From a virus: a stretch of 64,000 bases of DNA. The stretch covers positions 1 through 64,000 of the IMG/VR virus record IMGVR_UViG_3300036820_000004, one strand, 5' to 3'. Within the stretch, counting starts at the first letter, position 1; each line of letters opens with the position of its first letter. The notes under the pieces were generated by a model that saw nothing but the letters and a program-made list of their open reading frames with translations, made no database searches and was not told where the DNA came from. Both the position numbers and the translations under genes were made by a program. Positions 2,517 through 63,840 of this stretch are shown here, piece by piece.

Positions 2517-3394
2517 CGGTGAGCCTCCGTCTGGTAGCCGAGATCCTCGGAGATCGTGCATAGTGCGCTCCCGGAGCGAGGGTGCTTGCAGCGGTACTCG
2601 CACTCGGGCCGCTCCCACGACATCTGCCATCTGGCGCGGTGGCCGAACCGGCGGTGCAGACGGCGCATCGACGGGAGGTTGAGTTCAGTCGGCGAGTCCC
2701 AGATGTCGTGCCAGGCCGCGCCGTACCAGGCCGGCGGCACGCAGTCGTCGTGCAGGGCGCATCCTTCGCGGGTCCCGAGCCTCAGCGTGAGAGCGTCACC
2801 GAGATGAACGTGCAGCCTCGGGTCGGCCGCCCAGGCATCCCGGGCCGCCTCGTCGCGGGCGGTCAACTCGATGACATCGGGGTCGATCTCGATCACGTCG
2901 ATGTGCTCGACGGGGCAGTTCGCGAGCAGCCACGCCGGGACGATGCCCAGCCCGAGGCCGCTGACCAGAATGTTCGCGGTGCCCTCAGACTGCACCCGGT
3001 CCAGGAACGGCAGGCATCCGGCTATCTCGGCGGGGAGATCCGACATGACCAGGCCGCGCTCGTCGTGGACAAGGGCGGTGTACCAGCCCGGTTCCCACGG
3101 CAGGCCATCGGCCTCCGCCACCCACTGCGACGGCTCGCCAGTCTTGTCCTCGACCATCTCGACACGCCACGGGCCGCGCCGGCCGCAAATACCGACATGT
3201 GCCCGGTAATCGTCCCAGCTGACCGTCTTCCAGCGTTCGCGGTCGTGGCCGGCTCGCGGGCGGCGGCCGGACTGGATGAGCGCCTTGGCGAGGCCGGGGC
3301 TGCCGTCGAGGAAGGCGCGGGACCAGGTGTGCTGGCTCTCGCCTCCGGTGACACCGGCCGACGGGCCGGTGATCACGTCACCATGGGTCTGCAT
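2513..3394 (-). CDS. SAM-dependent methyltransferase (spermidine-synthase-like fold)
   Basis: ILVSGLGLG ... IDVIEIDPDVI ... HLGDA ... WHDIW Rossmann motifs. Confidence 0.75.
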   Translation of the reverse strand: MQTHGDVITGPSAGVTGGESQHTWSRAFLDGSPGLAKALIQSGRRPRAGHDRERWKTVSWDDYRAHVGICGRRGPWRVEMVEDKTGEPSQWVAEADGLPWEPGWYTALVHDERGLVMSDLPAEIAGCLPFLDRVQSEGTANILVSGLGLGIVPAWLLANCPVEHIDVIEIDPDVIELTARDEAARDAWAADPRLHVHLGDALTLRLGTREGCALHDDCVPPAWYGAAWHDIWDSPTELNLPSMRRLHRRFGHRARWQMSWERPECEYRCKHPRSGSALCTISEDLGYQTEAHR

Positions 3395-3968
3395 CGGTGC
3401 CCTCCCCTGCGTTCAGGTACTCGCGCCAGTCGACCGGGCCGGTCTCAGTCCAGAACCGGAACTCCCGGCGACGGCGCCCGGTGAACACCAGCGTCCACAG
3501 CAGGCCGTCCACCGATGTGATCCTGTGCGCCTCGCTGAACTTGATGGCCCTCAGCGAGAAGCGGGGACGCTTGCGGTTGCGGGGCCAGATCAGCGAGTCC
3601 GGGTCATCCCAGATCCGCTCCTCGTAGCTGCCCGACAGGATCAAGCTCACGAAAGGCCAGGGATGATCGTGCGGATCGCGGTCCATGTCCGGGCCGTGAA
3701 TCCGGTGCAGCATCACGGCGAACCACGGGGTCTGAACGACGCGGAGGCGGTCCAGGTAGGGCCGGCCATCCTTGACGATCTGATAGCCCTGCATGAACGC
3801 CCAGCGCGGGCTCGGCTTGCCGATCATCGGGCATTCACCTCCGAGCGGGCGTAGCTCTGGATGGCGGCCCGTACGCGCTCGATCGCGGCGGCGTCCTTTT
3901 CGGCGCGGGCTGCGTTCCATGCGTTCCGGAGGTGCTGAGGCAGCCGGTGCCAGTCCCCCGGGGATCAT
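3378..3968 (-). CDS. cupin-like phage protein
   Basis: DRDPHDHPWPFVSLILSGSYEE and HRI motif; start 3968 (coupled) or 3827. Confidence 0.6.
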   Translation of the reverse strand: MIPGGLAPAASAPPERMERSPRRKGRRRDRARTGRHPELRPLGGECPMIGKPSPRWAFMQGYQIVKDGRPYLDRLRVVQTPWFAVMLHRIHGPDMDRDPHDHPWPFVSLILSGSYEERIWDDPDSLIWPRNRKRPRFSLRAIKFSEAHRITSVDGLLWTLVFTGRRRREFRFWTETGPVDWREYLNAGEGTDADPW

Positions 3969-4804
3969 GACGCCTCCTTGAGCGCCGCAGTTGAGCGCGA
4001 GCGTTCTTTCCACCGACGCCAGGTCTCGCGCTTGCAGATGCGGCAAGCCCTTGAGCCGTCCGGGTGGCGATAGGTGTTCGCAGGTGTGTACTCGTGCCCG
4101 TTTACGCAGTGGGTCCTGCGACCATGCATGCGGGCGTTGTTTTCCTTGACGGTCACGGGATCCAGATGTGCCGGATTACAGCAGCGCCGATGCGGGCATC
4201 TGCCGCGGGCATGACAACCGGTGTCCTTGTTGTGGCACACATGGTCGAGCTTCAGTTCATCTGGAATCGGGGCCCGCAACAACTCCCACGCCAAGCGGTG
4301 GACGTATACCCGCCTGCCTTCAAGTTGGGTATAGCCGTAGCCGTTCCTGACGAGCTGACCGTTCCACAACCAGCAAGGTGCATCGTCCACGGCATCCGGT
4401 ACAGTCGGCCCGATGACGATTTGCGACCAAAAACGCTCTATAGCCTCCCGGCGCATCCCGGGCGGCATCTTGAGGATCTTGGCCGGGTCGCCATACATGC
4501 GGAAGCGGCGGTAGTGCTTACGGCAGAGATCCCTGCGATATACCGGCTTGTCGCAACGTGGTTGTGAGCATTCCTTGTAGATGCCGGCAATGATCGCCGC
4601 ATTCCGCTTTGCCGCCGCCCGCTGGCGCGTCGCCCTGGTGACAGCCTTCACTTCAGGGCTTGCCCTCCGGGCGCGAGCACGGGCTGTCATGCACTCACGG
4701 CACTTAGTTTGAAGGCCGTCTCGGTTGTCCTTGCAGCGCCCGAATTGCTCCCTTGGGAGATCCCTGCCGCACGCCTTGCATCGCTTGAGTTGTTCACGAC
4801 TCAT
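3965..4804 (-). CDS. HNH endonuclease with Zn-binding modules
   Basis: CWLW..GYG..HRLAW..LDHVC..RCCNPAHL..ENN; C-terminal THCVNGHEY..RACRIC. Confidence 0.85.
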   Translation of the reverse strand: MSREQLKRCKACGRDLPREQFGRCKDNRDGLQTKCRECMTARARARRASPEVKAVTRATRQRAAAKRNAAIIAGIYKECSQPRCDKPVYRRDLCRKHYRRFRMYGDPAKILKMPPGMRREAIERFWSQIVIGPTVPDAVDDAPCWLWNGQLVRNGYGYTQLEGRRVYVHRLAWELLRAPIPDELKLDHVCHNKDTGCHARGRCPHRRCCNPAHLDPVTVKENNARMHGRRTHCVNGHEYTPANTYRHPDGSRACRICKRETWRRWKERSRSTAALKEAS

Positions 4805-4943
4805 CCGGAACCCTCCAGTCCAGCGAAAGGCGTCACACGCGAACGGCTCACAGGGTCGCCGCAGAACACGCACGGCGGCCTGAGACTGGAGCCGGGGGCT
4901 TCGTTGGGCCGGGCTGCGGGACGGGCCGGGTGGCGGCGGGGCA

Positions 4944-5330
4944 TCAGGCAGCCACCCCGTTCCCGCGTTGCCTCTCGTCGTAGAGCAGCCGGACCAGGAT
5001 CGGTGCCCCGGCCACCCGTTCCGCCCGCCGCCGCCGCTGGGCTTGCGCCTGGTAGGCCCGCTCGCCCTGCTGCACGGCCAGCGGCATGTCAGCGAAGGCG
5101 ACGCCGGCTTTGCGCAGCGCGGTGCAGTCGGCGTGCATCCGGCGCAGACGGGCGGCACGGGCCTCGGCAGTGGTGAGCACTTCGCCGCGGCGCCGTTTCT
5201 GCCGCCAGTCCTCGGCAGCGGCGTGGGCTGCCAGGCATGCCGGGTCAGCCTTCTGGCCATGGGCCTTGTGCCGCTCGTAGCCGCCGTCCGTACCGCAGGG
5301 TGAGAGGTTCCACCAGGGACGCCAGCTCAT
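4944..5330 (-). CDS. hypothetical actinophage protein
   Basis: PCGTDGGYERH motif typical of small actinophage Zn/DNA-binding proteins; coupled start. Confidence 0.55.
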   Translation of the reverse strand: MSWRPWWNLSPCGTDGGYERHKAHGQKADPACLAAHAAAEDWRQKRRRGEVLTTAEARAARLRRMHADCTALRKAGVAFADMPLAVQQGERAYQAQAQRRRRAERVAGAPILVRLLYDERQRGNGVAA

Positions 5331-5671
5331 GACGGCATCGCCTCCCATGCCCACCCGGGACCGGTGACCGCGCGGGCCCGGTACTTGCCCGGCTGAACCG
5401 GCGGCCCGGCCAGGCTCGTGAGGTACACGTGCAGCGAGCAGGTCAGCAACTGGTCTCCGAGTCGTTCCCGCAGCGGGTGACGGGTCGTGAACGAGTCCGC
5501 GCCAAACCAGACGATGTGCTCGGTGATCTGGTCGGCCAGGATCTCGGCTACCGCGCCACGGTTAGGGCAGTGCAGGTAAGAGCACGTGACGTCGCCCCCA
5601 TCGCCGAGGAAGAGGGTCCGGCCGCAGCCCATCGGGCAGTAGCCGTCCACGTAACGGTCGTCGGCGCTCAC
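5327..5671 (-). CDS. Cys-rich hypothetical protein
   Basis: CPMGC..CSYLHC; coupled both sides. Confidence 0.6.
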   Translation of the reverse strand: MSADDRYVDGYCPMGCGRTLFLGDGGDVTCSYLHCPNRGAVAEILADQITEHIVWFGADSFTTRHPLRERLGDQLLTCSLHVYLTSLAGPPVQPGKYRARAVTGPGWAWEAMPS

Positions 5672-6516
5672 GGTGCAGCCTCCAACTGGGTGAGGGCGCG
5701 CTGTGCTGCCTTGGCCAGCGCGTCACGAATCCTGCGGGCATCGGCGAGCAACCGCTGCGCAGCGACATGGCCGGCGACACCGGGAAGCGCGGCGGCGAAC
5801 TCCTCCGGGCGCACGGCGGTGACCGGTGTCTCGCCATGCCACGCGTACTGGTCGACCTTGACCCCGGCCGCTTCCTCGATGACTTTGAGGGCGTCAAGCC
5901 GGTCGCGGGTGTGCGAGGACAAGCCGCGAACCTCCTGCTCGGCGCGGATCTTCTGCGCCTGCTGGTACAGGTCGTCGCGGTGCTCCTGGCGCAGCGCCTC
6001 TATCTCGGCGAGACGCTCGTTGTCGGCGCGGGCTAGCAGGTCAGCGAGCAGGCCGAGGGTCAGCTGCGGTTCCTTGACGGCCGCCTCGGCGACGACCCGG
6101 AACCGGCGGCTCCGTGACTGCGGTTCCATCAGCCCCCACCCGGCGGGCAGTTCGCCGCCACGGATAATGCCGGGCGGGGCGACGACCCACCAGCGTGAGC
6201 AGTACGGCCACCACGCGTCGGCCTTGGCCGGGTCGTCAAGCTCGCGCAGCCAGTCCGAGCGGGAGACCTTGAGTTCGTGGGCGTCGATGCCCCGGCCCCG
6301 GGATGCCACGCCAATGTGGATGAGGTCGCAGCGGCGGCGTTGCGGGCCGGGTGACTCGGGTTCGGTGATGAGGATGCAGCCGTCACGGGCGGTGCCTGGC
6401 TTGCGGTAGTGGGTTTTCAGTGCGGTGAGCAGGCCGCTGGTGCTCATCTGCGGGGTCTTCTCGCCTGTGCCCGGCTCGGGTGCGACCGGGGGAAGCGTGT
6501 CCTGGACAGCGGTCAT
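5668..6516 (-). CDS. MmcB-like PD-(D/E)XK nuclease
   Basis: RRCDLI...HELKVSRSDWLREL...WWVVAP...ELPAGWGL. Confidence 0.7.
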   Translation of the reverse strand: MTAVQDTLPPVAPEPGTGEKTPQMSTSGLLTALKTHYRKPGTARDGCILITEPESPGPQRRRCDLIHIGVASRGRGIDAHELKVSRSDWLRELDDPAKADAWWPYCSRWWVVAPPGIIRGGELPAGWGLMEPQSRSRRFRVVAEAAVKEPQLTLGLLADLLARADNERLAEIEALRQEHRDDLYQQAQKIRAEQEVRGLSSHTRDRLDALKVIEEAAGVKVDQYAWHGETPVTAVRPEEFAAALPGVAGHVAAQRLLADARRIRDALAKAAQRALTQLEAAP

Positions 6517-50526: not shown

Positions 50527-53499
50527 GTGCCCAAGCGCGCCGCCGCCCCGCCCATCCCCGCGAACCCGGTCTACGGGATGATCGCGGACGAGGTAGCCGA
50601 GCAGGCCGACCTCGGCGCGAAGTTCCGCGACGAATGGCGGGCGCAGGCCCGGCCCGAGCAGATCCCCCCAGACGGCCGGTGGCGGACCTGGTACCTGGCA
50701 GGTGGCAGAGGTGGGGGTAAACTGCTATGCGTGGATACCCCCGTTCCCACCCCCGGCGGGTGGACGCCCATGGGCAAGCTCGCCATCGGCGACAAGGTCT
50801 TTGACGAGGCAGGGAAGGTCTGCCACGTCACCGGGATCGTTGACGACGTGCCGGAGAAGGCTTACCGGCTGACATTCTCCGACGGTGCCCAGATCGACGC
50901 CTGCGCTGATCACCAGTGGGTCACCTGGACGCATGCCGAGCGGAAGGCGTTCCTGCGCTCCCCCTACGAGGACACCTCGCGCATGCCAGACAACTGGCCG
51001 GCATGGCGGCTACGCCGGGTCAGGACTGCCGCGATCCTGACGCGCGAGCAGGTAGAACCCGCGCTGGAACTTTACGCCCAGGGTCTGTCGATCCGGCAGG
51101 TCGTGAAGCGGACGGGCCTGTCACGTATCGGGCTCACCCGCCACCTCCAGGCAGGCCGGTACCTGTCGCCAGAGCCGCAGGTCTACCCCGGCTCGCCGGG
51201 CCCGCAGATCCGCGTTACGCAGGAGATCGCTGACACCCTGACAACGGGCGAGCGCGGGGACACCAACCATGCCGTCCCGGTCTGCGGTGTTCTCGACCTC
51301 CCAGATGCCGCCCTGCCCGTTGACCCGTACGTCCTTGGTGCGTGGCTTGGTGACGGGACTGGGCGCGAGGGCATCATCACGATCGGCGATGAGGATGCCG
51401 GGGAAATGCTCGGCTACCTCGCAGCGGGTGGCGCACCGCTCAGCGGCCGGCCACGCCGCCGCGCTGAATCCAAGAGCGCCGCGTACCCGATAGGCGGTGC
51501 CCCGGCGGCCCGCGACGTCCGGACCGGCCGCATCACCGCGAACGGCAGCCTGCACTCGGCACTGGAAGCGCTCGGGGTGCGTGGCGTGAAGCATGTCCCT
51601 GCTGTCTACCTGCGGGCATCGCCGACACAGCGCCTGGCACTCCTCCAGGGCCTGATGGACACTGACGGCGGATGGTCCGGGTGCAACGTCGAGTTCACTT
51701 CCTGTACGAAGCCGCTGGCAGATGCCGTGGCAGAACTGGCTCGCAGCCTCGGCCAGAAGCCCGTTATCCGCGAAGGCCGCGCCACGCTGTACGGCAAGGA
51801 CTGCGGACCGCGGTGGCGGGTTCGCTGGACGCCTACCGTGAACTGCTTCCGGCTCCAGCGCAAGGCGGCAGGCGTCCGGGCGAGCGGCCCGCAGATGTTC
51901 CGCCACCATCACCGGATGATCGTCAGCGCCGAGCCCGTCGATCCCCGGCCGATGCGCTGCATCACCGTCGACTCGCCGAACCACATGTACCTGTGCGGCG
52001 ACGCCATGATCCCCACGCACAACTCCTGGACCGGGGCACACACCCTCGCCGAATGGATCCTCACCGACCCCGTCCCCGGCGAATGGGGCATCGTCGCCCC
52101 CATCTACGCCGACGCATGGAGTGTCTGCGTCGAAGGAGAGAGCGGCATCCTTGCCGCGTTCGGAACGAACGTTGAGGAAGTCAAGCGCGGCAAGTCGAAA
52201 CTGGTCGAGTACTGGCACAAGAGCTTCGCCGAGCTCAAGATGCGGTCCGGGCACATTATCCGCGTCGCCTCCGCCGAAGACGGCGGCCTGCGCATCCAGG
52301 GCAAGAACCTCAAAGGTGCCTGGTGCGATGAGATCGGCTTGTGGGACGCGTGGAAAACCACGTGGGATGAGTCGCTGAAGTACGCGGTCCGCAAGGGCCG
52401 GTCCCAGATCGTGGCGACCGGCACGCCGAAGAAGTCCCGCAAGGCCCGTGAGCTGATCCGGCGTCTCATCGCCGATCCGGCGGTGCGCAAGACGCGGGTG
52501 CGGACAATCGACAACCGGGCCAACCTGTCCGAGGAGTTCTTCGGCGAGGTCGTCAGTTCATCCAAGGGCACCCGCCTCGAACAGCAGGAACTCGAAGGCG
52601 TCCTCCTCGACGACGTCGAGGGCGCGCTGTGGACCGCGGACCTCATCGACTCCTACCGCACCGAACCCGGCAAGGTCCCGGACCTGCTGCGTGTCGTCGT
52701 CGCCGTCGACCCCGCCGTGTCCAACGACGAGGACTCCGACGAGACCGGCATCGTCGTCGTCGGCGAGGCTGAGGGCGGCCACGGGTTCGTCCTCGCGGAC
52801 TACTCCATGCGGGGCACCCCGGACGCGTGCATGCGCAAAGCCGTCTGGGCGTACCACCACCACCAGGCCGACAAGGTCATCGGCGAAGCGAACAACGGCG
52901 GCGACTACATCGGCTCGCTGCTCAAGACGGTTGACCCGGACGTCCCCTACGAGAAAGTCATCGCCAGCCGGGGCAAGCGGGTCCGCGCCGAGCCCGTCTC
53001 CGCGCTCTACGAGCAGGGCCGGGTCCACCACGTGGGCTGCCACACCATGCTCGAGGAGCAGATGATCTCCTGGGTGCCGTCCGACCCGGGTGACTCCCCC
53101 GACCGTGTAGATGCCCTGGTCTGGGCGTGTTCGGCACTTAGAAGCCTTTCGTCCGGTTCGTGGCTGGAAGCGTACGGCGTGAAGCGCTGCGGCGACTGCG
53201 GCAAAACGTTCCCCGAGCGGGAGGGCGAGTGCCCGTCCTGCCACCCGAAAGCACCCGACGCTGGCAAGCCGGCGGCGAAGACGACAACCCCGGCCGAGCC
53301 TGCGGCGATCGGCGGGTGGGCTTCAGCGTACGGGGACTTCGTCCGCTGCCCCGCCTGCTCCCGCCCCTACGACAAACGCCGCCACGGCAAATGCCCGGCC
53401 TGTCACGGCGGGCTGATGCGGATGCTGCAGCAGAACGGCCGGCCCGCAGGAATGCCCGGCGGGATGCCCGCTGGCGGGATGACGGGAGGATTCAGGTGA
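50527..53499 (+). CDS. terL: terminase large subunit, intein-containing
   Basis: Walker A GGRGGGK/S split by intein; AWCDEIG; VVAVDPA, DETGIVV, EANNGG, SPDRVDAL nuclease. Confidence 0.95.
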   Translation: MPKRAAAPPIPANPVYGMIADEVAEQADLGAKFRDEWRAQARPEQIPPDGRWRTWYLAGGRGGGKLLCVDTPVPTPGGWTPMGKLAIGDKVFDEAGKVCHVTGIVDDVPEKAYRLTFSDGAQIDACADHQWVTWTHAERKAFLRSPYEDTSRMPDNWPAWRLRRVRTAAILTREQVEPALELYAQGLSIRQVVKRTGLSRIGLTRHLQAGRYLSPEPQVYPGSPGPQIRVTQEIADTLTTGERGDTNHAVPVCGVLDLPDAALPVDPYVLGAWLGDGTGREGIITIGDEDAGEMLGYLAAGGAPLSGRPRRRAESKSAAYPIGGAPAARDVRTGRITANGSLHSALEALGVRGVKHVPAVYLRASPTQRLALLQGLMDTDGGWSGCNVEFTSCTKPLADAVAELARSLGQKPVIREGRATLYGKDCGPRWRVRWTPTVNCFRLQRKAAGVRASGPQMFRHHHRMIVSAEPVDPRPMRCITVDSPNHMYLCGDAMIPTHNSWTGAHTLAEWILTDPVPGEWGIVAPIYADAWSVCVEGESGILAAFGTNVEEVKRGKSKLVEYWHKSFAELKMRSGHIIRVASAEDGGLRIQGKNLKGAWCDEIGLWDAWKTTWDESLKYAVRKGRSQIVATGTPKKSRKARELIRRLIADPAVRKTRVRTIDNRANLSEEFFGEVVSSSKGTRLEQQELEGVLLDDVEGALWTADLIDSYRTEPGKVPDLLRVVVAVDPAVSNDEDSDETGIVVVGEAEGGHGFVLADYSMRGTPDACMRKAVWAYHHHQADKVIGEANNGGDYIGSLLKTVDPDVPYEKVIASRGKRVRAEPVSALYEQGRVHHVGCHTMLEEQMISWVPSDPGDSPDRVDALVWACSALRSLSSGSWLEAYGVKRCGDCGKTFPEREGECPSCHPKAPDAGKPAAKTTTPAEPAAIGGWASAYGDFVRCPACSRPYDKRRHGKCPACHGGLMRMLQQNGRPAGMPGGMPAGGMTGGFR
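50722..52023 (+). mobile_element. class 3 intein with LAGLIDADG endonuclease
   Basis: LLCVDTPVPTP...ADHQW...MRCITVD...IPTHN/S; YVLGAWLGDG and LLQGLMDTDG. Confidence 0.9.
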
Positions 53500-54182: not shown

Positions 54183-54577
54183 CCGGCGAGCGCAGCCTGG
54201 AGGAGCGTGTCGCCGCGCTGGAGGAACTGGCCGCGCACCCGCTGCGGTCAGTCACGATGCCTGAGTTCACGGGGGAAGACGCGGAAAAGTTCCGGCACGA
54301 CATTGAAGCCGCCGGGCTCGCGGCACACGAGTACACGATCCTTCCGCCCGGCCCGCGCCTCACCGAGGACGAGGTCCGTCACCTCCTCCGCGAGTGCGTC
54401 ACCGTGGTCAAGCCGGGCGAACTGCTGGTGATCCGGGTGGCGGATTTCACGCCGCAGCAACTCCGCGAGTACAACGACCTGGTCTCCTGCTGGCTGGACG
54501 GGTATGCGCCCGGTGTCCGGTGCCTGATTACCCTCGGCGAGGAACTGGGCGTGGCAGAGGCGGCCGCCGGTGCCTGA
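54179..54577 (+). CDS. hypothetical protein
   Basis: ATGA coupling. Confidence 0.6.
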   Translation: MTGERSLEERVAALEELAAHPLRSVTMPEFTGEDAEKFRHDIEAAGLAAHEYTILPPGPRLTEDEVRHLLRECVTVVKPGELLVIRVADFTPQQLREYNDLVSCWLDGYAPGVRCLITLGEELGVAEAAAGA

Positions 54578-54986
54578 CCGTCCGGAGCACTTCGAGGGCA
54601 CCGTCACCGTCGAGTGGACACCGGACGGCCCGTCGCCGATGCGCGGCTGGCGGTTCATGATCAGCGCCGAGGACGGGACGCCCATCACCACGGTCACCGG
54701 ACTAACCATCCACGCCAGCGCCGGCAACCTTGTCTGGGCCGAGCTGACTATGTTCACCGATGAGGATGGCCGGCCGGTCTGCAGTGCCGCGGTCATCTTG
54801 CCGAATGAGCCGCCGCGGGCCACGTTCGCGTTCGAGGTTGCGGGCATGGGTGTAGCGGACACCGGGCTATTCGGTCCCCTCTCACCGATCCCGCCCGTCC
54901 CGCTGGATGGGCCGCCGGGTTCGCCGCGTCCGGAACCCCGGCGATTTCAGTACCCGGTCGGCTACGGGGCAGGCGGCCATGAGTGA
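54570..54986 (+). CDS. hypothetical protein ending in portal-like peptide
   Basis: C-terminus similar to portal N-terminal segment (see findings). Confidence 0.6.
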   Translation: MPDRPEHFEGTVTVEWTPDGPSPMRGWRFMISAEDGTPITTVTGLTIHASAGNLVWAELTMFTDEDGRPVCSAAVILPNEPPRATFAFEVAGMGVADTGLFGPLSPIPPVPLDGPPGSPRPEPRRFQYPVGYGAGGHE

Positions 54987-58267: not shown

Positions 58268-58288
58268 CGTTCGATGCTGGAGGTGACC

Positions 58289-61200
58289 ATGGCCTCCCCT
58301 TCGGCCATCCTCGCAGCGAGCAAATCCATGCCCGGCGGGGGCCGGCCGAACCCGGGCCCCCAGCAGCAGCAAGGCCCTTACATCGGCCGCATGTCCCCGC
58401 TGGTGCAGCAACTCAACAATGAGCATGGATATGCGAATACGTATGGCGGCTTTTTGCCGAGGCCGCCGCAGACGTTTACCGATGGCGCATTCAGCCCGTT
58501 CTCGCCGATCATGCCGGTGCCGATTGATGCGCCACCACCTGGCTTCGAGCGGCCAGAACCCCGGCGATTCGCCTACGAGGTAGGTTACAACCTTCCTATC
58601 GGCGACCCGGGCACTGAGGGCGGCTACAAGCTCGCCCCGTTCTCGGTGCTCAAGTCGCTGTCGAAGAACTACTCGATCGCGCGGCGCTGCATCCAGCTAG
58701 TGAAAAAGGAAGTCTGCGGCCTGGACTGGGACATCACCCTCACCTCCCACGCGGAGAAGGCCTACCAGGGTGACCATGAGGCGCAGCGGGACTTCGGGGA
58801 ACGGCGCGCGAAGGCGATGCGGTTTTTCCGCAAGCCGGACCCGAACTACTTCGACTTCACGTCGTGGATGTCGGCGATGCTGGAGCAGATCCTCACCATC
58901 GACGCCCTGAGCTTGTACCTGTGCCCGAAGAAGGGCACCGGGATGGGCCGGGGCCTGCTCGGCTCGGACCTGGACGGCTTGTGGTGCATCGACGGGGCGA
59001 CGATCCGGCCGCTGCTGAACCTGCACGGCGGCATGCCCGTCCCCCCCGCGCCCGCCTACCAGCAGTACGAGTACGGCGTGCCCCGCGCTGATTTCACGAC
59101 GGTGATGGCCGGCCTGGACCTGCCCGAGATCGCCGGCGGGGAACGCGGGGCTTACCGCGGCGACCAGCTGGTCTACCTGCCGATGTGCCCGTTCCCTGAC
59201 TCGCCGTACGGGTTCTCCCCGACCGAGCAGGCGCTGGTCCCGATCCTGACCGGGCTCCGCAAGCAGGGCTACCAGCTGGAGTTCTTCACCGAGGGCACCG
59301 TGCCCGCGGTTTATATTTCACCAGGCGATACATCCATGACTCCCAATCAGGTAAGGGAGCTTCAGGATGCATTGAATGCGGTCGCGAACGACCAGGCATT
59401 TCATTGGAAAGTCATTGTTTTGCCGCCTGGAAGCAAAACAATGCCACAAAAGCCTAATGATATTGTCGACCAGAGCGACGAGTGGATCGCCAACGAGGTC
59501 TGCATGATGTACGGCGTCTCCCCCATGGACGTCGGCATCCTCCCCAAGGTGTCCACCGTGGCCAGCCCGTTCGCGGCGCGGGAAATGGCGCAGGCCAGCC
59601 GCACCAACCAGGAGAAGACCGACACCACGCCGCTGCTGAAGTTCATCGCCTCGATCCCGAACTTCATCCTCCAGATCGTGTGCGACCAGCCGGACATGGA
59701 GTTCTCGTTCGAGGGCATGCGCGAGGTCCAGGACGAGGCGGCGCTGACCGACACCTACGTCAAGCAGGCGCAGATCGGTGTCCGGTCGGTCGACGAGTTC
59801 CGCGACAAGATCGGCCTGCCGCCGTGGGGCCTGGACGAGACGAGCGGCCCGCTGGTGTTCACGCCGATGGGACCGATCCCCCTGTCGGAGGCCGTGTCGA
59901 TCGCGCAGGCGCAGGCACAGGCCAAGGCACTGCCGCCCGGGTCGTCCGGCGCCAAAAAGCCCGCGGTGACCGCGAAGCCGCTGCCGTCCGGCACCGTCAC
60001 CGGGCGGCAGCGCGCCCGCGGCGGTGCCGCGCTCACCCCGGCGCACGCCGCGTCCGAAGGGTTCATGCCCGAACGGTCGGCCAAGAAGCCCTCGGCGGGC
60101 CCGGCTCACGCCCAGGCGTCAGTTAAGGCGACGCTGGCCGAACTGGAGGCCCTGACCCGGCACCTGCGCAAGGGACGCCTGATCTCCACATGGGAAGCCC
60201 GGCATCTCGAGCCCCGCGCGCTGTCGCTGATCGCCGAGCAGATGGCGAAGGGCATGGACGCCGAGCAGGCCGCGGGCCTGGTGAAGACCATCGTCCTGCC
60301 GCCCGCGTCCTACCAGTGGGCAGAGAAGGCCCGGCACGAGCAGTCCCCGCAGGCTCAGATCCAGGCGCAGCAACTGGCCCTGGAGCAGGAGTACACGCGG
60401 CGGATCGAGGCCGCGTTCGCGTCCGCTGCCGCCGCGGCGGCGAAACTCATCGCCGCGTGGGGCGCGGGCACTCTCGCCGTGACTACCGCGGTCCTCGCCG
60501 GGCTCATCGCCGCCGAGTTGCGCAAGGCGCTGACGGCAGCGCTGAGCGGCCTGTGGGCCGACGCGTGGGCGCACGGCGAAGCCGAAGCAGGCGGATCCGC
60601 TGGCGGGGCGCTGGAAGCGTTCCTCGGCACCGTCGGCCGGCAGGTGCAGGAGTGGGTCAGCGAAACCAACGTCGCCGCCATCATCGCCGACCTGCGGGAC
60701 CTGGCCGGCCTGAAACGCAAGGCCCTGATCGCCGCGCTGCTGCGACTCCTCAAGGCAGATGAGCGGGCCGAACTCATCGCTGTCACCGAGCTGATGCGCG
60801 CCTGGAACCAGGCCGTTCTCGCCGTCTGGAAGCTGCTCGGGGTCACCTATAAGGGCTGGCAGACCCGCAACGACGCCAAGGTGTGTTTCCCCGCAGGTAC
60901 GCCCGTGGCGACGCCGACTGGCGAAGTGCCGATCGAGCGGCTAAAGCCCGGGGATCTCGTCATCACGCCAGAGGGGCAGCGTCCCGTCATTGCCACCATG
61001 GAGCGCCTGTACACAGGTGGCCTTACGGTGATTCAGGCGGAAGGCCGGACGGTCACGGCGACTGACAATCACCGGTTCATGACCACCAACGGCTGGCGCA
61101 AGGCTGCCGACCTCAAGCCCGGGGACCTCCTCAAGTCGCTTGAGGACGAGTCGGCAGAGATTGGCAGCGTCGTTCACTTCTCGCTCGCCCAGCCGGATGA

Positions 61201-63529
61201 CGTGCCAGCCGAGGCGGCCAAGTTCCGCATCGCGGATGGCGTCCTTGGCCGCAGTCCGCTGGTGCCAGTACTCGCCGTCGGCCTCAATGGCGACGGCGAG
61301 ACTGGTGAGCGCGAAGTCGATCGTCCAGCGGCTCACGTCAAGTTCGGGCGTGAACTCAAGGCGCAGCAGGGTGAGCGCCTGACGGACGCGGAACTCCAGC
61401 ATGGTCTCGCCCGTAAACTTGCGGTAGCAACTGCGGGAGCAGAACTGCCGATCGGCAGCGGCAAGGCCCGGCTGCGTGCGGAAGGTGACACTGCACGTCT
61501 TGCAGGTGAGGTAGACCGGTGGCCGGCGGCATTCCTCGGAACAGAACCGCCTGTTGAGATGCTTCTCAGCCCGGAAACGCGTTCCGCAGCGGTCACAGTC
61601 GACGTACTTGGTCTCGGCAGTGGTACATGCCCGCGAGCACGTCCTGTAGCGCTCGGCGGTGGACTGGCTGACGGTGAAGTCCTTGCCGCAGACAATGCAG
61701 GTCTTCGTGACCTTGCAACTGTCCTCGTAGCACGCCCGGGAGCAGTGGATCTTGGTCTTGTTATTGAGCCTGCCGGGGCGGAAGACGATGCCGCAGCCCG
61801 GGCAAGTGCGTTCGGCGTGGACGCGCGTAGCGGTGTGATAGCACTCGTTGGAGCAGAAGACTCGGGGGCTCCGGGTGCGCTGAGCACGCACGACGATTTT
61901 GCTGCACTGGGCGCATTGGTAAGTGAATGGCACGGACAGGCTTCCCCCATTCAAGCCATTATCGTTAATCACCCGCTTACAGTTTACAATGTCAGCGTTG
62001 AAACGGAGCCCGTTTACTACGCGAGTCGCTTCCTAGTTCACAATTGCGGGGAATGCAAGGCCAACCAGGCGGCCGGCTCCATTCCCGTCGGTGCGCGTTT
62101 CCCCAGCGGCGACCTGATGCCGCCAGGACATCCGCGCTGCCGGTGTCATGCGACCGCGCCCCCGCCCGGCTGGACACCCCCGGTCACGGCCGCGAACAAG
62201 AAGCGCAAGCGGGGCGTGAACCTGGACGGCGAAGTCGTTCTGGCCGACGCCAAGCCCGGAGACGAGAACCCTGCCGGCGGAGGTGGCCGCACCCTTTACC
62301 CGCACCGCCCTGACGGAACCGAGGTACCCGGGGGTGTTCCCGGCGCGTCTGCGGGAGGGGAGCCGCCGCGCTGGGACGCCTCCACCCCGGAACGCCGCGG
62401 CTACGTCAACACCTACGGCGAGGACGACGGCGACTGGCCTGAGCATGTCCGCGAGGTCGCGCCCAGGCCGGATCAGGACTACCCGGACGGCGGCGGCGAA
62501 GACGAGGACCTGTGGCCGGAAGGCGGCCACGGCACCGCCCAGCCCCCGGTGACGTCGATCGGCGGCGGACCGCGCGGCCGGGCACCAAACGCGGTGGGCA
62601 AGGCCGCCGACGCTGCGGCACAGTTCCTGAAGGACGCGCCGAAGGCCAAGGCCAGCGCGGTGCGCAAGCTCATGCAGGAGAACTTCCCGCCGGACGCCCT
62701 CGCCTGGGTAGGTCGCGCCACATGGGTGGGCCCCGTTGAGATCCCGCTGGAACTCATGGACCTGTCCGGCCGGAAGGGGTGGGCGGCGAGCCACCAGCAG
62801 GGCCACGTCAAGGCCATCGCCCGCGACCTGAAGGCCGGCCGGAAAGTCAACGAGATCATCGGCGTGCTGCGCCCGGGTCACAACCACGTCCGCCTTGTTG
62901 ACGGCAGGCATCGCACCCTGGCCTGCGAGAAGAACAAGATGCCGGTCCGCGGCTACGTCGGGTTCCTGGACCGCGACTCCGACCTGGAAGCGGCGTATGA
63001 CACCTACCACCAGCAGCATCACTTCGGGGACAGCCCGAAGAACAAGGCCGCAGGCTACGACCTGAGCCCGCGGTCGGGCATGATCTCCCTGGACCTGCCG
63101 GAAGGCCTCATCCAGCCGGTGCCCGGCGGCGTGGACGACCACCACGTGACGGTCGCCTACCTCGGCAAGGATGTGGACGATAGGGAGCTGGATATTGTGC
63201 TGGCGCAGGCACGCACCGCGGCCCGGCATGCTCCGGGCCCGCTGGCCGGGATGCTGTCCGGCATCGGCTCATTCCCGCCGTCCGATGGCAGTGACGGCAT
63301 GGTGCCCGCGTTCGTCCCGGCCCGCATCCCCGGCGCGGAGAAGCTCCGCGCCGACCTTGAGCACCTGTCGGCCAGCGAGCACAAGGACTGGGCGCCGCAC
63401 GTCACCCTCGCCTACCTGCAGCCGGGTGAGCCGCTCCCGGCGCCGCATCCCCCGGTGCCGGTGACGTTCACCCACCTGTCAGTGCACCGGGGCGATGAGG
63501 TGTACCGGTTCCCGCTGGGTGGCGAGTGA
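58289..63529 (+). CDS. portal - MuF (with intein) - ParB-like - 2H phosphoesterase fusion
   Basis: Portal: RRCIQLVK, IDGATIRPL, YGFSPTEQ, FFTEGTVP, SVDEFR; MuF: DAKV/CGEC..PPGHPRCRC; LVDGRHR; HVTVAYLG and PHVTLAY. Confidence 0.85.
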   Translation: MASPSAILAASKSMPGGGRPNPGPQQQQGPYIGRMSPLVQQLNNEHGYANTYGGFLPRPPQTFTDGAFSPFSPIMPVPIDAPPPGFERPEPRRFAYEVGYNLPIGDPGTEGGYKLAPFSVLKSLSKNYSIARRCIQLVKKEVCGLDWDITLTSHAEKAYQGDHEAQRDFGERRAKAMRFFRKPDPNYFDFTSWMSAMLEQILTIDALSLYLCPKKGTGMGRGLLGSDLDGLWCIDGATIRPLLNLHGGMPVPPAPAYQQYEYGVPRADFTTVMAGLDLPEIAGGERGAYRGDQLVYLPMCPFPDSPYGFSPTEQALVPILTGLRKQGYQLEFFTEGTVPAVYISPGDTSMTPNQVRELQDALNAVANDQAFHWKVIVLPPGSKTMPQKPNDIVDQSDEWIANEVCMMYGVSPMDVGILPKVSTVASPFAAREMAQASRTNQEKTDTTPLLKFIASIPNFILQIVCDQPDMEFSFEGMREVQDEAALTDTYVKQAQIGVRSVDEFRDKIGLPPWGLDETSGPLVFTPMGPIPLSEAVSIAQAQAQAKALPPGSSGAKKPAVTAKPLPSGTVTGRQRARGGAALTPAHAASEGFMPERSAKKPSAGPAHAQASVKATLAELEALTRHLRKGRLISTWEARHLEPRALSLIAEQMAKGMDAEQAAGLVKTIVLPPASYQWAEKARHEQSPQAQIQAQQLALEQEYTRRIEAAFASAAAAAAKLIAAWGAGTLAVTTAVLAGLIAAELRKALTAALSGLWADAWAHGEAEAGGSAGGALEAFLGTVGRQVQEWVSETNVAAIIADLRDLAGLKRKALIAALLRLLKADERAELIAVTELMRAWNQAVLAVWKLLGVTYKGWQTRNDAKVCFPAGTPVATPTGEVPIERLKPGDLVITPEGQRPVIATMERLYTGGLTVIQAEGRTVTATDNHRFMTTNGWRKAADLKPGDLLKSLEDESAEIGSVVHFSLAQPDDVPAEAAKFRIADGVLGRSPLVPVLAVGLNGDGETGEREVDRPAAHVKFGRELKAQQGERLTDAELQHGLARKLAVATAGAELPIGSGKARLRAEGDTARLAGEVDRWPAAFLGTEPPVEMLLSPETRSAAVTVDVLGLGSGTCPRARPVALGGGLADGEVLAADNAGLRDLATVLVARPGAVDLGLVIEPAGAEDDAAARASAFGVDARSGVIALVGAEDSGAPGALSTHDDFAALGALVSEWHGQASPIQAIIVNHPLTVYNVSVETEPVYYASRFLVHNCGECKANQAAGSIPVGARFPSGDLMPPGHPRCRCHATAPPPGWTPPVTAANKKRKRGVNLDGEVVLADAKPGDENPAGGGGRTLYPHRPDGTEVPGGVPGASAGGEPPRWDASTPERRGYVNTYGEDDGDWPEHVREVAPRPDQDYPDGGGEDEDLWPEGGHGTAQPPVTSIGGGPRGRAPNAVGKAADAAAQFLKDAPKAKASAVRKLMQENFPPDALAWVGRATWVGPVEIPLELMDLSGRKGWAASHQQGHVKAIARDLKAGRKVNEIIGVLRPGHNHVRLVDGRHRTLACEKNKMPVRGYVGFLDRDSDLEAAYDTYHQQHHFGDSPKNKAAGYDLSPRSGMISLDLPEGLIQPVPGGVDDHHVTVAYLGKDVDDRELDIVLAQARTAARHAPGPLAGMLSGIGSFPPSDGSDGMVPAFVPARIPGAEKLRADLEHLSASEHKDWAPHVTLAYLQPGEPLPAPHPPVPVTFTHLSVHRGDEVYRFPLGGE
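60884..62044 (+). mobile_element. intein (387 aa) in MuF domain
   Basis: CFPAGTPVATPTG...TATDNHRF...VYNVSVE..YYASRFLVHN/C; removal restores KVCGEC. Confidence 0.9.
60941..61933 (-). CDS. Zn-finger repeat + DUF559/Vsr-like endonuclease nested antisense in the intein
   Basis: Five CxxC...F...CSxxC repeats; ETMLE, IDFA, AIEADGEYWH, KDAIRD..L..LGW.VIR; GGGGGAAG RBS before GTG 61933. Confidence 0.85.
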   Translation of the reverse strand: MPFTYQCAQCSKIVVRAQRTRSPRVFCSNECYHTATRVHAERTCPGCGIVFRPGRLNNKTKIHCSRACYEDSCKVTKTCIVCGKDFTVSQSTAERYRTCSRACTTAETKYVDCDRCGTRFRAEKHLNRRFCSEECRRPPVYLTCKTCSVTFRTQPGLAAADRQFCSRSCYRKFTGETMLEFRVRQALTLLRLEFTPELDVSRWTIDFALTSLAVAIEADGEYWHQRTAAKDAIRDAELGRLGWHVIRLGEREVNDAANLCRLVLKRLEEVPGLEVGSLAPAVGGHEPVIVSRRDRPAFRLNHRKATCVQALHGGNDGTLPLWRDDEIPGL

Positions 63530-63840
63530 TGCTGGCTGATCCGGATCGGCCATGCCTGCACGGGAACTTCAGGGCCGGTGTTGAGGTCAACCGCCTCAGC
63601 GACACCGAGAATGGCCCGGTCACGGGCTACGCGGCCGATATCAAGGTCTGGTGCGATGACTGCGGCGAGCCATTTCGCTGGATCGGAGTGCAGGCCGGCC
63701 TTGACCCGCGCAGGCCGATGTGTTCCGTGGACGAGACGGAACTTCGAGCACCGCTGCGGCCTGCATCCGCAGACCCGGACTTCGGTTTGGGCATCCCCGG
63801 CTTCGCGGTGACATGGCGCGAGGGTTCCGGCAATGGCTAG
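63526..63840 (+). CDS. hypothetical protein
   Basis: Coupled; CDDCGEPFRWIG motif. Confidence 0.6.
   Translation: MMLADPDRPCLHGNFRAGVEVNRLSDTENGPVTGYAADIKVWCDDCGEPFRWIGVQAGLDPRRPMCSVDETELRAPLRPASADPDFGLGIPGFAVTWREGSGNG

Follow-up and report, generated by a model that had tools for sequence, protein, structure and literature searches.

The gene examined here encodes a putative capsid-carried cargo protein of a known type. Its single polypeptide runs from a portal domain and an intein-split MuF domain through an acidic Pro/Gly linker to a ParB/sulfiredoxin-fold domain and, at the C-terminus, a 2H phosphoesterase domain. The gene lies in a 64,000-nucleotide stretch (the window) of the virus record IMGVR_UViG_3300036820_000004, and the large terminase subunit gene is located 4.8 kb upstream. 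A zinc-finger and Vsr/DUF559 endonuclease gene, read in antisense, makes up the middle of the intein, an arrangement that has also already been described in a 2025 preprint. We consider it moderately probable that the spliced protein serves as a polyvalent cargo that is carried in the capsid and acts around ejection, with the 2H domain cleaving a cyclic or 2'-5' phosphodiester. The features are listed in Table 1.

Table 1. Features of the portal–MuF–ParB-like–2H locus (positions in the window; residues counted from the ATG at 58274; L003, the intein-less allele described in the text)
Feature	Position	Strand	Basis
Portal–MuF–ParB-like–2H precursor gene	58289..63529	+	Open frame; stop TGA 63527-63529
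Portal domain, aa 136-513	58679..59812	+	Pfam Phage_portal PF04860, phrog_2662
MuF domain, N-extein part, aa ~801-870, ending ...WQTRNDAKV	60674..60883	+	Alignment to L003
Putative class-1 intein, 387 aa, aa 871-1257	60884..62044	+	Hint_2, motifs, absence from L003
Homing-endonuclease gene, Vsr/DUF559	60941..61933	-	DUF559 match, GC flip; codon-against-codon with host frame
MuF domain, C-extein part, aa 1258-1292, CGEC...PPGHPRCRCH zinc motif	62045..62149	+	Continues the Phage_Mu_F match of L003
Acidic low-complexity Gly/Pro linker, aa 1301-1470, after KKRKRG patch	62174..62683	+	Composition
ParB/sulfiredoxin-fold domain, aa 1480-1583, DGRHR aa 1543-1547	62711..63022	+	Predicted fold
2H phosphoesterase domain, aa 1597-1751 (~155 aa)	63062..63526	+	PF13563, fold, HxT motifs
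Small gene, ~103 aa	63529..63840	+	ATG overlaps the 2H stop codon (TGATG)

The plus-strand frame 58274..63529 is open throughout and gives 1751 aa when counted from its first in-frame ATG (58274), from which all residue numbers of this protein are counted. The ATG at 58289, which gives a 1746-aa precursor, is the likelier start, because GGAGG is found 5 nt upstream and the homolog L003 begins at the equivalent Met. The fusion might be imagined as an artefact in which mis-assembly, a lost stop, or a frameshift joined domains that are really separate genes. The record is a virus contig derived from a metagenome, and some relatives do encode the ParB–2H part as a separate small protein (e.g., P0005, 264 aa, and P0027, 318 aa). 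However, two contigs of a second assembly, made from a soil-metagenome run, span the entire frame with no differences and no indels, although this run, the sole one found, is probably the source sample and the second assembly is thus not independent support. A stop or frameshift separating the domains, which the preliminary description of this DNA had proposed to look for, was accordingly absent from the reassembled sequence. The third-position GC of the plus frame is 0.75–0.99 everywhere but in the intein core and is thereby kept across all the other domain borders, the portal...ParB...2H order also occurs in independent proteins of 1273–2271 aa (P0009, P0015, P0022, P0041, and P0083), and L003 is collinear as far as the end of the ParB-like domain. 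We therefore regard an artefactual fusion as having a negligible probability.

The portal domain, which had been placed at ~58.3–59.9 kb from the sequence alone, was confirmed by a match to Pfam PF04860 over aa 136–513 (E 2.9e-16; 60 bits against a cut-off of 39.1) and to phrog_2662 'portal protein' over aa 95–871 (E 2.1e-53). A tblastn search showed 24–29% identity to portal genes from Arthrobacter, Thermoanaerobacterium, and Brevundimonas phages. A Pfam scan of the two MuF halves in the sequence itself gave no match, because the intein splits the domain. In the intein-less allele L003 (81% identical), Phage_Mu_F (PF04233) was detected at 34.9 bits against a cut-off of 29.6, covering profile positions 5–110 of 112, and the exteins of our sequence align to this MuF domain on either side of the intein. 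The N-terminal part by itself gave weak 'head morphogenesis' PHROG matches, and the C-terminal part gave weak matches to TIGR01641 SPP1_gp7 and 'minor head protein'. These alignments assign the region to the MuF / SPP1 gp7 family, and the MuF head-morphogenesis domain noted earlier is supported through the intein-less allele.

The segment interrupting the MuF domain matched Pfam Hint_2 at 45.7 bits (cut-off 28.4). It possesses Cys871 (CFPAGT...), block B TATDNH (aa 928–933), and a C-terminal ...FLVHN1257 (HN 1256–1257), and is followed by Cys1258 as the +1 residue. The L003 protein lacks exactly aa 871–1257 and reads ...NDAKV-C-ASCRANQ... there, with the insertion point directly preceding the Cys that opens the MuF zinc motif. 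Judged from its residues, the Hint profile, and the precise absence in the intein-less allele, the segment is classified as a class-1 intein. Because the catalytic residues are intact and the interrupted MuF motif is conserved, we infer that post-translational splicing yields a mature protein of ~1359 aa. The single frame of ~1750 aa in the preliminary description is therefore correct as an open frame but not as the expected mature product. Similarly, the gene is not simply a polyprotein gene, as it contains an intein with an antisense endonuclease gene inside. Both the intein and the minus-strand gene within it had been overlooked in that description.

The minus-strand gene encodes five CxxC...CSxxC zinc fingers and a Vsr/DUF559 nuclease domain (nt 61139–61402; Pfam DUF559 E 2.4e-9, 37.5 bits against a cut-off of 20.6). 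The longest minus-strand frame begins at 61972, and the likely start is the GTG at 61933, as suggested by the alignment with the homolog in L004 (MPFPY...) and by the GGGGGAAG sequence upstream. Over ~61124–62023, the third-position GC of the plus frame falls to 0.45–0.60 and the first-position GC rises to 0.82–0.86, indicating that codon usage there follows the minus strand. Homologs of the endonuclease were found at 18 viral-contig loci; the antisense layout is also present in L004, L006–L009, L010, and L021, and an in-frame version of the endonuclease is present in L018.

The codons TTA, CTA, and TCA in the endonuclease frame correspond to stops on the host strand, and their counts were used to assess the open host frame. 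They are absent from the endonuclease frame of our gene (0 of 387 codons) and of L004, L006/7, L010, and L021. In the low-GC L006, the three codons account for 8.2% of the extein codons, and TTA is used for 29 of 40 Leu residues in the exteins versus 0 of 26 in the endonuclease frame. The chance of a stop-free host frame was estimated to be ~3e-11 for L006 (281 codons), 7e-6 for L010, 2e-3 for L021, and 0.3 for our own high-GC window, where an open host frame over the endonuclease gene is thus not improbable by chance. The codon avoidance in the low-GC relatives proves, at the level of sequence comparison, that the host frame is kept open by selection in these phages (L006–L010). Inteins with an antisense VSR-like homing endonuclease in 'minor capsid protein' genes of actinobacteriophages are described in the accessible part of a preprint by Gosselin, Arsenault, and Gogarten (bioRxiv 10.1101/2025.01.02.630785). 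By its predicted features, the present element belongs with them: the host is again a MuF-type (IPR006528) head gene with a full intein, whose in-frame middle shows no recognizable structure, and the Vsr-like endonuclease has its own ORF, read from the other strand. Unlike the inteins in that part of the preprint, it resides in an uncultured soil phage and in a portal–MuF fusion that also bears enzyme cargo, and its relatives carry the layout beyond those inteins into low-GC phages (L006–L010).

Downstream of the MuF domain, the linker is rich in Gly and Pro and acidic, as had been noted: 125 residues (aa 1315–1439) include 25 G, 18 P, 24 D+E, and 10 K+R, with a net charge of -14. It is 81% conserved relative to L003, and comparable linkers are found in other phmmer matches. 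The LVDGRHR sequence beginning at aa 1541, which had been taken for a ParB/Srx-like motif, lies within a confidently predicted domain; the AlphaFold2 model had a mean pLDDT of 91.3, with values above 90 across most of the ParB-like domain. Using VIA-align, the model of this domain matched sulfiredoxin 6ky4 (Z 9.0, rmsd 2.2 over 88 residues), PadC 6ryk (Z 8.3), human Srx (Z 7.8), KorB 8qa8 (Z 7.2), and the serine kinase 5x0b (Z 6.7). DG(H/R)xR is kept in 35 of 36 homologous ParB-like segments, and the nearest named clusters in the Atlas are ParB_N and DUF6551 (0.94). The predicted fold thus places the domain in the ParB/sulfiredoxin superfamily. At the profile level, no Pfam family, the ParB N-terminal domain PF02195 included, was detected at E ≤ 10 for aa 1440–1619, NCBIfam gave no match, phrog_1033 'ParB-like' matched at E 0.01 only, and tblastn against 50,697 phage records gave no match at E ≤ 1. 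A comparison of the ParB-like alignment A1 with P1 DdrB by hhalign (probability 0.1, E 0.5) did not indicate homology, although the template was a single sequence, which leaves room for a remote relationship. The family of this domain, which would form one half of the two-enzyme cassette considered below, is recognized by no profile library.

The C-terminal domain is a member of the 2H phosphoesterase superfamily. Both HxT motifs of the preliminary description are present, H1624-V-T1626 (63143–63151, in HVTVAYLG at aa 1624) and H1709-V-T1711 (63398–63406, in PHVTLAY at aa 1708), and the two Hx[TS] motifs are kept in all 144 of 144 homologous 2H domains; the conserved motifs of this family's own include SGMISLDLP and LSASEH. 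Pfam 2_5_RNA_ligase2 (PF13563) scored 30.7 bits against a cut-off of 27 when the domain was scanned alone and 24.9 bits in the whole protein. The best fold matches obtained with VIA-align were LigT/ThpR and RNA 2',3'-cyclic phosphodiesterases (5h7f, 1vgj, 4qak, and 2d4g; Z 13.8–15.6 over 142–151 residues), led by the Deinococcus radiodurans CPDase 5h7f (Z 15.6, rmsd 3.2 over 151 residues), LigT 1vgj (Z 14.2), and 4qak (Z 13.9), with both HxT motifs in register. Usb1 structures followed at Z 13.8. The top Foldseek matches were also of the LigT/CPDase families, as were all four matches to PDB sequence profiles, which were weak (E 0.04–0.8). Unlike the situation in LigT/ThpR, to which the sequence similarity is marginal, the domain here is fused to a virion protein. 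The family-level profiles fell below their cut-offs on the 2H domain: NCBIfam TIGR02258 (2_5_ligase, the LigT/ThpR equivalog) scored 21.4 bits against 65.7, Pfam LigT_PEase 21.6 against 23.3, and Pfam Acb1 (PF23474) 14.2 against 27 (E 0.036 over 15 residues). The preliminary description had drawn a comparison with Acb1, the phage anti-CBASS 2H nuclease. This comparison holds at the superfamily level, since Acb1 (7t27) shares the 2H fold (Z 10.0, rmsd 3.8 over 124 residues; Foldseek E 1.7e-3), the two HxT motifs, and a phage origin, but the Acb1 family threshold was missed, and the fold is closer to LigT/CPDase. Acb1 ranks below LigT, Usb1, AKAP18, and viral 2',5'-phosphodiesterases as a fold match and, unlike the 2H domain here, occurs on its own rather than within a head protein. 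LigT/CPDase, Usb1, AKAP18, the viral 2',5'-phosphodiesterases, and Acb1 all matched at Z ~10 or more, and the fold comparison therefore singles out no substrate.

The order of the fold matches raises the alternative that the protein heals RNA ends, with the 2H domain opening 2',3'-cyclic phosphate ends left by anticodon nucleases of the host or further metal-independent RNases and the ParB/Srx-fold domain carrying out a second end-modifying step; whether delivered or expressed, the two together would help to restore tRNA. The nearest folds (Z 13.9–15.6), with which Foldseek agrees, and the four weak sequence-level PDB matches are in line with such a role. The ParB/Srx fold is common to ATP-dependent sulfiredoxin and free serine kinase, the latter being represented among the fold matches by 5x0b, and in the homolog P0035 the 2H domain is fused with a Zeta/AAA_33 P-loop kinase, a pairing reminiscent of kinase and CPDase healing modules. 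On the other hand, RtcB, Rnl2-type RNA ligase, and KptA/Tpt1 were not found in the 119.8-kb phage record (estimated to be 91% complete), the 2_5_ligase equivalog score is far from its cut-off, and, in the accessible part of Iyer et al. (PMC5512222), polyvalent-type 2H domains were never seen with RNA ligases. We consider RNA-end healing rather unlikely.

An exhaustive HMMER search retrieved 1485 representatives at E ≤ 1e-3, including 142 at E ≤ 1e-30. Among the best 150 of the 1485, the 2H domain was found in 140, the ParB-like domain in 34, and both in 24 (ParB first in 19); portal or MuF segments, detected with our own segments, were found in 28. In varied order, the two domains occur in metagenomic fusions to portal, MuF, and prohead-protease domains and within giant proteins combining several enzymes; together they also make up stand-alone proteins of 264–391 aa. 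L024 and L025 have a portal–2H–MuF order in a single frame, a Planomonospora protein combines a prohead protease (PF04586) with 2H, and other relatives fuse 2H to NUDIX, Arr-type/exotoxin-type ADP-ribosyltransferase, GNAT, and Zeta/AAA_33 kinase domains. L003 (81–82% identical) possesses neither the intein nor the 2H domain and stops right after the ParB-like domain, and L029 and P0008 retain no more of 2H than its first 28–30 residues. Since such a close relative ends after the ParB-like domain, the 2H module is, by this comparison, accessory.

In the accessible part of Jamet et al. 2017 (PMC5576092), MuF proteins are described whose C-terminal toxin domains vary and whose genes have a small ORF behind them. 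Our gene resembles this family (SPP1 Gp7, Mu GpF) in having MuF by the portal, here fused, a variable C-terminal extension, and a small ORF downstream. The 2H domain could then be a Usb1-like RNase toxin acting against bacterial RNA, with the downstream gene encoding its immunity protein. The Usb1 matches at Z 13.8 and the fact that 2H and the small ORF form one ~790-nt block missing in L003 fit this scheme, and a Usb1-like RNase role is among the options given in the accessible part of Iyer et al. (PMC5512222). However, the small ORF has 18 viral-contig homologs (59–76% identity), and a complete 2H domain was found within 3 kb upstream in none of these 18 loci. Seven of the loci had detectable upstream domains, which were portal and/or MuF in all seven; the L029 locus also contains mid-region, linker, and ParB-like segments and a 28-residue 2H stub. 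The small ORF follows portal/MuF genes lacking 2H and thus goes with the head module, not with 2H, and we rejected it as an immunity partner. The combination of a C-terminal toxin and a cognate downstream immunity gene that characterizes MuF polymorphic toxins was not found at this locus, the extension being no recognized toxin domain in contrast to the toxins in the accessible part of PMC5576092. In many relatives, moreover, 2H is internal or ahead of MuF, unlike the C-terminal toxin-tip layout. A polymorphic toxin is accordingly quite improbable.

For the capsid-carried cargo that we favor, the following course of events may be envisaged. After the intein is spliced out, the protein would assemble as a dodecameric portal. 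The portal C-terminus points into the capsid in portal structures, so that the MuF, ParB-like, and 2H parts would sit inside the head at ~12 copies per virion. The activity of the cargo would fall at the moment of DNA ejection or shortly afterwards, with the cargo still tethered or freed by cleavage in the linkers. The 2H domain would hydrolyze a cyclic or 2'-5' phosphodiester, our best guess for its target being the nucleotide second messengers used in host defence or else 2',3'-cyclic phosphate ends, and the ParB-like domain may bind nucleotide or DNA, or nick DNA. We infer the packaging, the proteolytic release, and the substrate of the cargo protein.

The release from the portal is the step at which a different course is conceivable, namely that the ParB-like and 2H domains are not ejected but stay tethered to the portal or work before assembly in the producing cell, acting on the packaged DNA end or on late-firing defences, which are triggered at the stage of head-protein synthesis. 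The portal fusion is covalent, and the scans revealed neither a protease nor an autopeptidase domain in the protein, and no peptidase in 19 neighboring frames (PHROGs on 18, with Pfam added for three, and Pfam alone on one), which makes the exit of a portal-tethered cargo from the head hard to explain. In the accessible part of PMC5576092, SPP1 Gp7 (MuF) is described as a portal-binding protein located in the capsid, and reference titles there point to DNA binding; the accessible part of PMC9503650 offers the alternative that fused enzymes counter immunity aimed at the packaging apparatus. Nevertheless, long flexible linkers flank the cargo, and the 2H family also occurs in giant multi-effector proteins alongside ADP-ribosyltransferase and NUDIX domains, which fits better with an injected-effector role. 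We therefore think it unlikely that the cargo is retained.

The capsid-carried cargo reading agrees with what is known of phage 'polyvalent proteins'. The accessible part of Iyer, Burroughs, Anand, de Souza, and Aravind 2017 (PMC5512222) describes such proteins in which MuF or portal carries a 2H domain, and suggests that this 2H either works as an RNase or breaks down 2'-5' oligoadenylate or cyclic nucleotides; the accessible part of PMC9503650 makes the same proposal for these fusions. The functional idea of the preliminary description, a head-carried enzyme directed against cyclic-nucleotide signals or RNA ends, is thus a hypothesis already published, whereas its reading of the domains proved correct in every item by profile matches, predicted folds, and motifs. 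With at least two predicted effector-type domains in one phage polypeptide and a virion/late-gene context, our protein would count as a polyvalent protein. As in the proteins of PMC5512222, the gene belongs to the head/packaging module, portal and MuF are fused, a 2H phosphoesterase and a ParB/Srx-superfamily domain are included, and relatives bear NUDIX, ADP-ribosyltransferase, GNAT, and kinase domains; the role proposed there, packaging and early delivery to act on RNA or signalling nucleotides, is also the one proposed here. It differs from the proteins in that part of PMC5512222 in that similarity of its ParB-like domain to the P1 DdrB-like ParB could not be detected and no Pfam/NCBIfam model matches that domain, a metallopeptidase domain is absent, and MuF bears an intein.

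The fold comparison also relates the 2H domain to the C-terminal 2',5'-phosphodiesterase of rotavirus VP3 (4rpt, 6o3v, and 5af2; Z 11.1 and 10.7, Foldseek E 7e-6 to 3e-4, identity 9–13%), where a large viral enzyme of several domains likewise ends in 2H. VP3 is carried in the virion. Although it belongs to a eukaryotic dsRNA virus and its carrier protein is unrelated, it provides a precedent for a virion-borne 2H enzyme destroying an immune oligonucleotide signal. A more speculative proposal, to which we assign only a small chance, is that the ParB/sulfiredoxin-fold and 2H domains constitute a fixed two-enzyme cassette and that portal, MuF, or protease carriers preload it into the capsid. Should the two halves of the cassette share one substrate, for example through an NTP-dependent ParB-like step followed by 2H phosphodiester cleavage, they would become the first pair of virion-delivered enzymes to disarm nucleotide-based defence before phage gene expression.

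The preliminary description of this locus, a single frame joining portal, MuF, ParB-like and 2H phosphoesterase domains, was accurate yet incomplete, because an intein was left out. The open frame spans 58274–63529 (residues are counted here from 58274). The previously proposed start, ATG 58289, is preferred because GGAGG lies 5 bases upstream and the closest relative begins at the equivalent Met. In a check for a stop or frameshift between the domains, a second assembly, which is not independent because it probably derives from the source sample, contained the whole frame with 0 differences and 0 indels. An assembly artefact is the least likely of the readings considered here. No near-identical phage genome emerged when the gene was compared by megablast with 50,697 phage records. 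The window, with a GC content of 65–71%, covers the initial 64 kb of a virus record that is 119,753 bp long and has an estimated completeness of 91%. Only one sequencing run, labelled soil metagenome, contains the stretch, and no RNA dataset was listed as containing it. The few named homologs of the C-terminal domains are from actinomycetes (Planomonospora and Bailinhaonella), and the host is likely actinobacterial.

Coordinates of the giant gene, its neighbors and related genes in other viral contigs
Feature	Position	Strand	Details
Large terminase gene	50527..53499	+	Upstream of the giant gene; 990 aa
Intein in large terminase gene	~50728-52023
Portal-like stretch	54861-54968	+	35 residues at the C-terminal end of frame 54570-54986; 69% identity to portal N-terminus (aa 71-105)
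Giant gene	58274/58289..63529	+	Portal-MuF-ParB-like-2H
Endonuclease ORF within intein	60941..61972	-	Likely start GTG 61933; codon against codon
Small ORF	63529-63840	+	ATG overlaps the giant gene's stop (TGATG); no family match
1064-aa gene, beyond the window	G000:C1:66454-69648 (L023:3055-6249)	+	Between portal gene and capsid region
MuF gene with same-strand nuclease	L018:2660-5614	+	Low-GC phage
MuF genes with antisense endonuclease	L006-L009 and L010, ~3330-5880	-	33-36% GC phages
Frames with 2H between portal and MuF	L024:1-3003; L025:6108-9383		High GC; 1000-1091 aa
Salgado gene 18	L022 11779-12900		2H homolog

Profile searches bore out the portal domain (Pfam, aa 136–513, 60 bits for a cut-off of 39.1; phrog_2662, E 2.1e-53). 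The MuF domain was recognized in the 81% identical allele of the relative L003 (Phage_Mu_F, 34.9 against 29.6 bits), which aligns with the giant protein on either side of a large insertion. The acidic Pro/Gly linker (aa 1315–1439, net charge -14), the ParB/sulfiredoxin-type motif LVDGRHR (aa 1541) and both HxT motifs (aa 1624 and 1709) were likewise found as described. A short stretch upstream of the gene shares with the portal N-terminus the motif G.F.P.SPI.PVP.D.PP.G..RPEPRRF.Y.VGY, and may be what is left of a portal 5′ end or a peptide motif common to the two.

The C-terminal part (aa 1440–1751) was modeled from a 38-sequence alignment with a mean pLDDT of 91.3 and a pTM of 0.64, values indicating that both domains are confident and that their mutual orientation is not. 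The 2H domain comprises 155 residues (aa 1597–1751) with intact catalytic motifs. Structural comparison of its model gave the following Z scores: Deinococcus radiodurans CPDase, 15.6 (rmsd 3.2 over 151 residues); Pyrococcus horikoshii LigT, 14.2; phosphoesterase 4qak, 13.9; YjcG and Usb1, 13.8 each; AKAP18, 12.0; rotavirus VP3 phosphodiesterase, 11.1; coronavirus ns2, 10.6; and Acb1, 10.0. Foldseek agreed with these matches. Scanned alone, the domain exceeded the Pfam 2_5_RNA_ligase2 cut-off and fell below that of the LigT equivalog model; membership of the Acb1 family was ruled out by the Pfam score. Both Hx[TS] motifs are present in all 144 full-length 2H domains of the homolog set.

The preceding domain (aa 1480–1583) resembles sulfiredoxin (Z 9.0, with 88 residues aligned at rmsd 2.2), PadC, a ParB-like protein (Z 8.3), and KorB (Z 7.2). 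It matched no Pfam family at E ≤ 10, no NCBIfam model and, by tblastn, no phage sequence at E ≤ 1, so the label "ParB" derives only from the predicted fold and the motif. An hhalign comparison with the DdrB-like ParB prototype of phage P1, a single sequence, was negative. The DG(H/R)xR signature is present in 35 of 36 homologous segments, and the domain lies outside every catalogued family.

Used as the query of an exhaustive HMMER search, the 312-aa C-terminus matched 1485 representative proteins at E ≤ 1e-3, of which 142 reached E ≤ 1e-30. Among the best 150 of the 1485, 140 possess a 2H domain (in tandem in seven), and 34 a ParB-like domain; 24 combine the two, the ParB-like domain leading in 19; a portal or MuF domain was detectable in 28 using the giant protein's own segments, and 48 are at least 1000 aa long. 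The domain orders observed were portal-MuF-ParB-2H, portal-2H-ParB, portal-ParB-2H-MuF, 2H-MuF and ParB-2H alone; the ParB-2H pair recurs as a unit. In the viral contigs L024 and L025, a single frame places a 2H domain with 68–70% identity to that of the giant protein between portal and MuF. Other 2H fusion partners include NUDIX, Arr-type and exotoxin-type ADP-ribosyltransferase, GNAT, Zeta/AAA_33 kinase and prohead protease domains. In Arthrobacter phages of the Laroye/Salgado group, a 2H homolog (~40% identity over ~100 residues) is encoded immediately behind the genes annotated as portal and capsid maturation protease. In phage Salgado this homolog is gene 18, annotated as "RNA ligase" and, in sister phages, as "aldolase class I", an annotation that looks doubtful.

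Comparison with relatives revealed that the 2H module is accessory. The L003 protein (81–82% identical) stops at residue 1591 of the giant protein, directly after the ParB-like domain, and the next gene is the counterpart of that at 63833; L003 therefore lacks the ~790 nt holding the 2H domain and the small ORF. In the homologous protein P0008 (aa 1199–1228) and the viral contig L029 (2909–2992), only the first 28–30 residues of the 2H domain are kept before a stop, suggesting deletion of the module. If the 2H domain were a toxin, the small ORF could be its immunity partner. This pairing was rejected: homologs of the small ORF occur in 18 viral contigs (59–76% identity), and a complete 2H domain lies in the 3 kb upstream in none of the 18. 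A portal and/or MuF domain was detectable there in seven of them; because these occur without a complete 2H domain, the small ORF belongs to the head module and not to the 2H domain. The toxin reading is ranked above only the assembly artefact. Farther downstream, the 1064-aa gene matches no PHROG, although its coding signal is strong, with a third-position GC of 0.88.

The intein missing from the preliminary description occupies residues 871–1257, begins with CFPAGT and ends with FLVHN followed by Cys, and scores 45.7 bits against Hint_2 (Pfam cut-off, 28.4). L003 lacks exactly these residues, reading NDAKV-C-ASCRANQ where the present protein reads NDAKV-intein-CGECKANQ, and the insertion point directly precedes the MuF zinc motif's first Cys. 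On the opposite strand, the intein contains an ORF whose product combines a DUF559/Vsr nuclease domain (37.5 against 20.6 bits) with five zinc fingers of the form CxxC...CSxxC. Over ~61124–62023, the GC-rich codon position moves from position 3 to position 1 of the plus frame, so that codon usage is obeyed by the minus-strand frame; in this interval the plus strand reads as a spacer rich in Ala, Gly, Val, Leu, Asp and Arg.

Homologs of the endonuclease were found at 18 viral-contig loci. Seven (L004, L006–L009, L010 and L021) carry it antisense inside an open-frame MuF intein, one (L018) has a related nuclease in frame within the intein, and the remaining 10 have no opposite-strand frame spanning the nuclease gene. 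With its zinc-finger and DUF559-like nuclease on the same strand, the L018 intein represents the conventional arrangement, at the MuF site that the antisense form also occupies. The codons TTA, CTA and TCA would be read as stops from the host strand, and the endonuclease frame contains none of them at any locus tested. In the low-GC locus L006, they account for 8.2% of the extein codons, and TTA encodes 29 of 40 Leu residues in the exteins versus none of the 26 that the endonuclease frame encodes. Arithmetic from the frequencies puts the probability of their absence by chance at ~3e-11 for L006, 7e-6 for L010, 2e-3 for L021 and 0.3 for the high-GC window itself. Throughout L006–L010, the endonuclease gene encodes Leu by CTT or CTC and never by TTA, versus TTA for most Leu in the exteins. 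The L010 MuF protein also has a ParB-like segment with VNGRHRW at its end. The antisense layout is real and selected, yet already described: a 2025 preprint reports actinobacteriophage minor capsid genes (IPR006528) whose inteins hold VSR-like endonucleases in anti-sense orientation (bioRxiv 10.1101/2025.01.02.630785).

The large terminase gene also contains an intein, directly after Walker A (GGRGGGK LL/C...THN/S, with slashes at the intein boundaries) and with LAGLIDADG-type endonuclease motifs. Pfam detected Terminase_6N only from aa 500 of this frame, and LAGLIDADG_3 (aa 368–417) at 21.4 bits, below the cut-off of 22.5.

The mechanism that we propose is the polyvalent-protein model. The intein would splice out to leave a protein of ~1359 aa, fusion to the portal would place ~12 copies of the MuF, ParB-like and 2H domains inside the capsid, and the enzymes would act at or just after ejection, either free or tethered. 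No peptidase was found in the giant protein or among the 19 neighboring frames scanned. PHROGs gave no protease in 10 frames (nine in 50.5–58.3 kb and 63526–63840) or in eight frames of 63.4–73.4 kb, most of the neighboring frames having no match at all, and Pfam gave none in the terminase frame, the two frames just downstream and one antisense frame. Fusions of 2H domains to MuF or portal were reported by Iyer et al. in 2017 (PMC5512222), who proposed for them either Usb1-like RNase activity or degradation of 2′-5′ oligoadenylate and host-defense cyclic nucleotides; the same group repeated this account in 2022 (PMC9503650).

Among the predicted functions, we rank hydrolysis of signals or cyclic phosphates by delivered cargo first and RNA-end healing second. 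Neither RtcB, an Rnl2-type ligase nor KptA was found in the 119.8-kb record, itself an estimated 91% complete, which is in line with the 2017 paper, whose authors never saw 2H versions of this type associated with RNA ligases (PMC5512222). Third comes action inside the producing cell or within the capsid, ahead of the toxin reading.

Earlier work describes this kind of cargo architecture as well as the intein layout, and the exact domain order or close relatives may be included in Figure 5B or the supplements of PMC5512222 or in Supplemental Table 1 of the preprint. The interest lies in the predicted packaged 2H enzyme, its uncatalogued ParB-like partner and the recurrence of the pair. The head-packaged phage 2H enzyme has been a comparative-genomics prediction since 2017, and we found no bench test of one in the literature surveyed. 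This locus and its many relatives supply concrete material for such a test, namely a compact 155-aa domain and a natural relative without it. One essential head gene here carries three mobile or accessory layers (an intein, the endonuclease gene antisense to it and an enzyme module that can be swapped), which automatic annotation would reduce to a single giant "portal protein". Should the enzyme be delivered along with the DNA and break down cyclic-oligonucleotide or 2′-5′ signals, counter-defense could precede transcription, which would change the interpretation of the early phase of CBASS, type III CRISPR and comparable systems.
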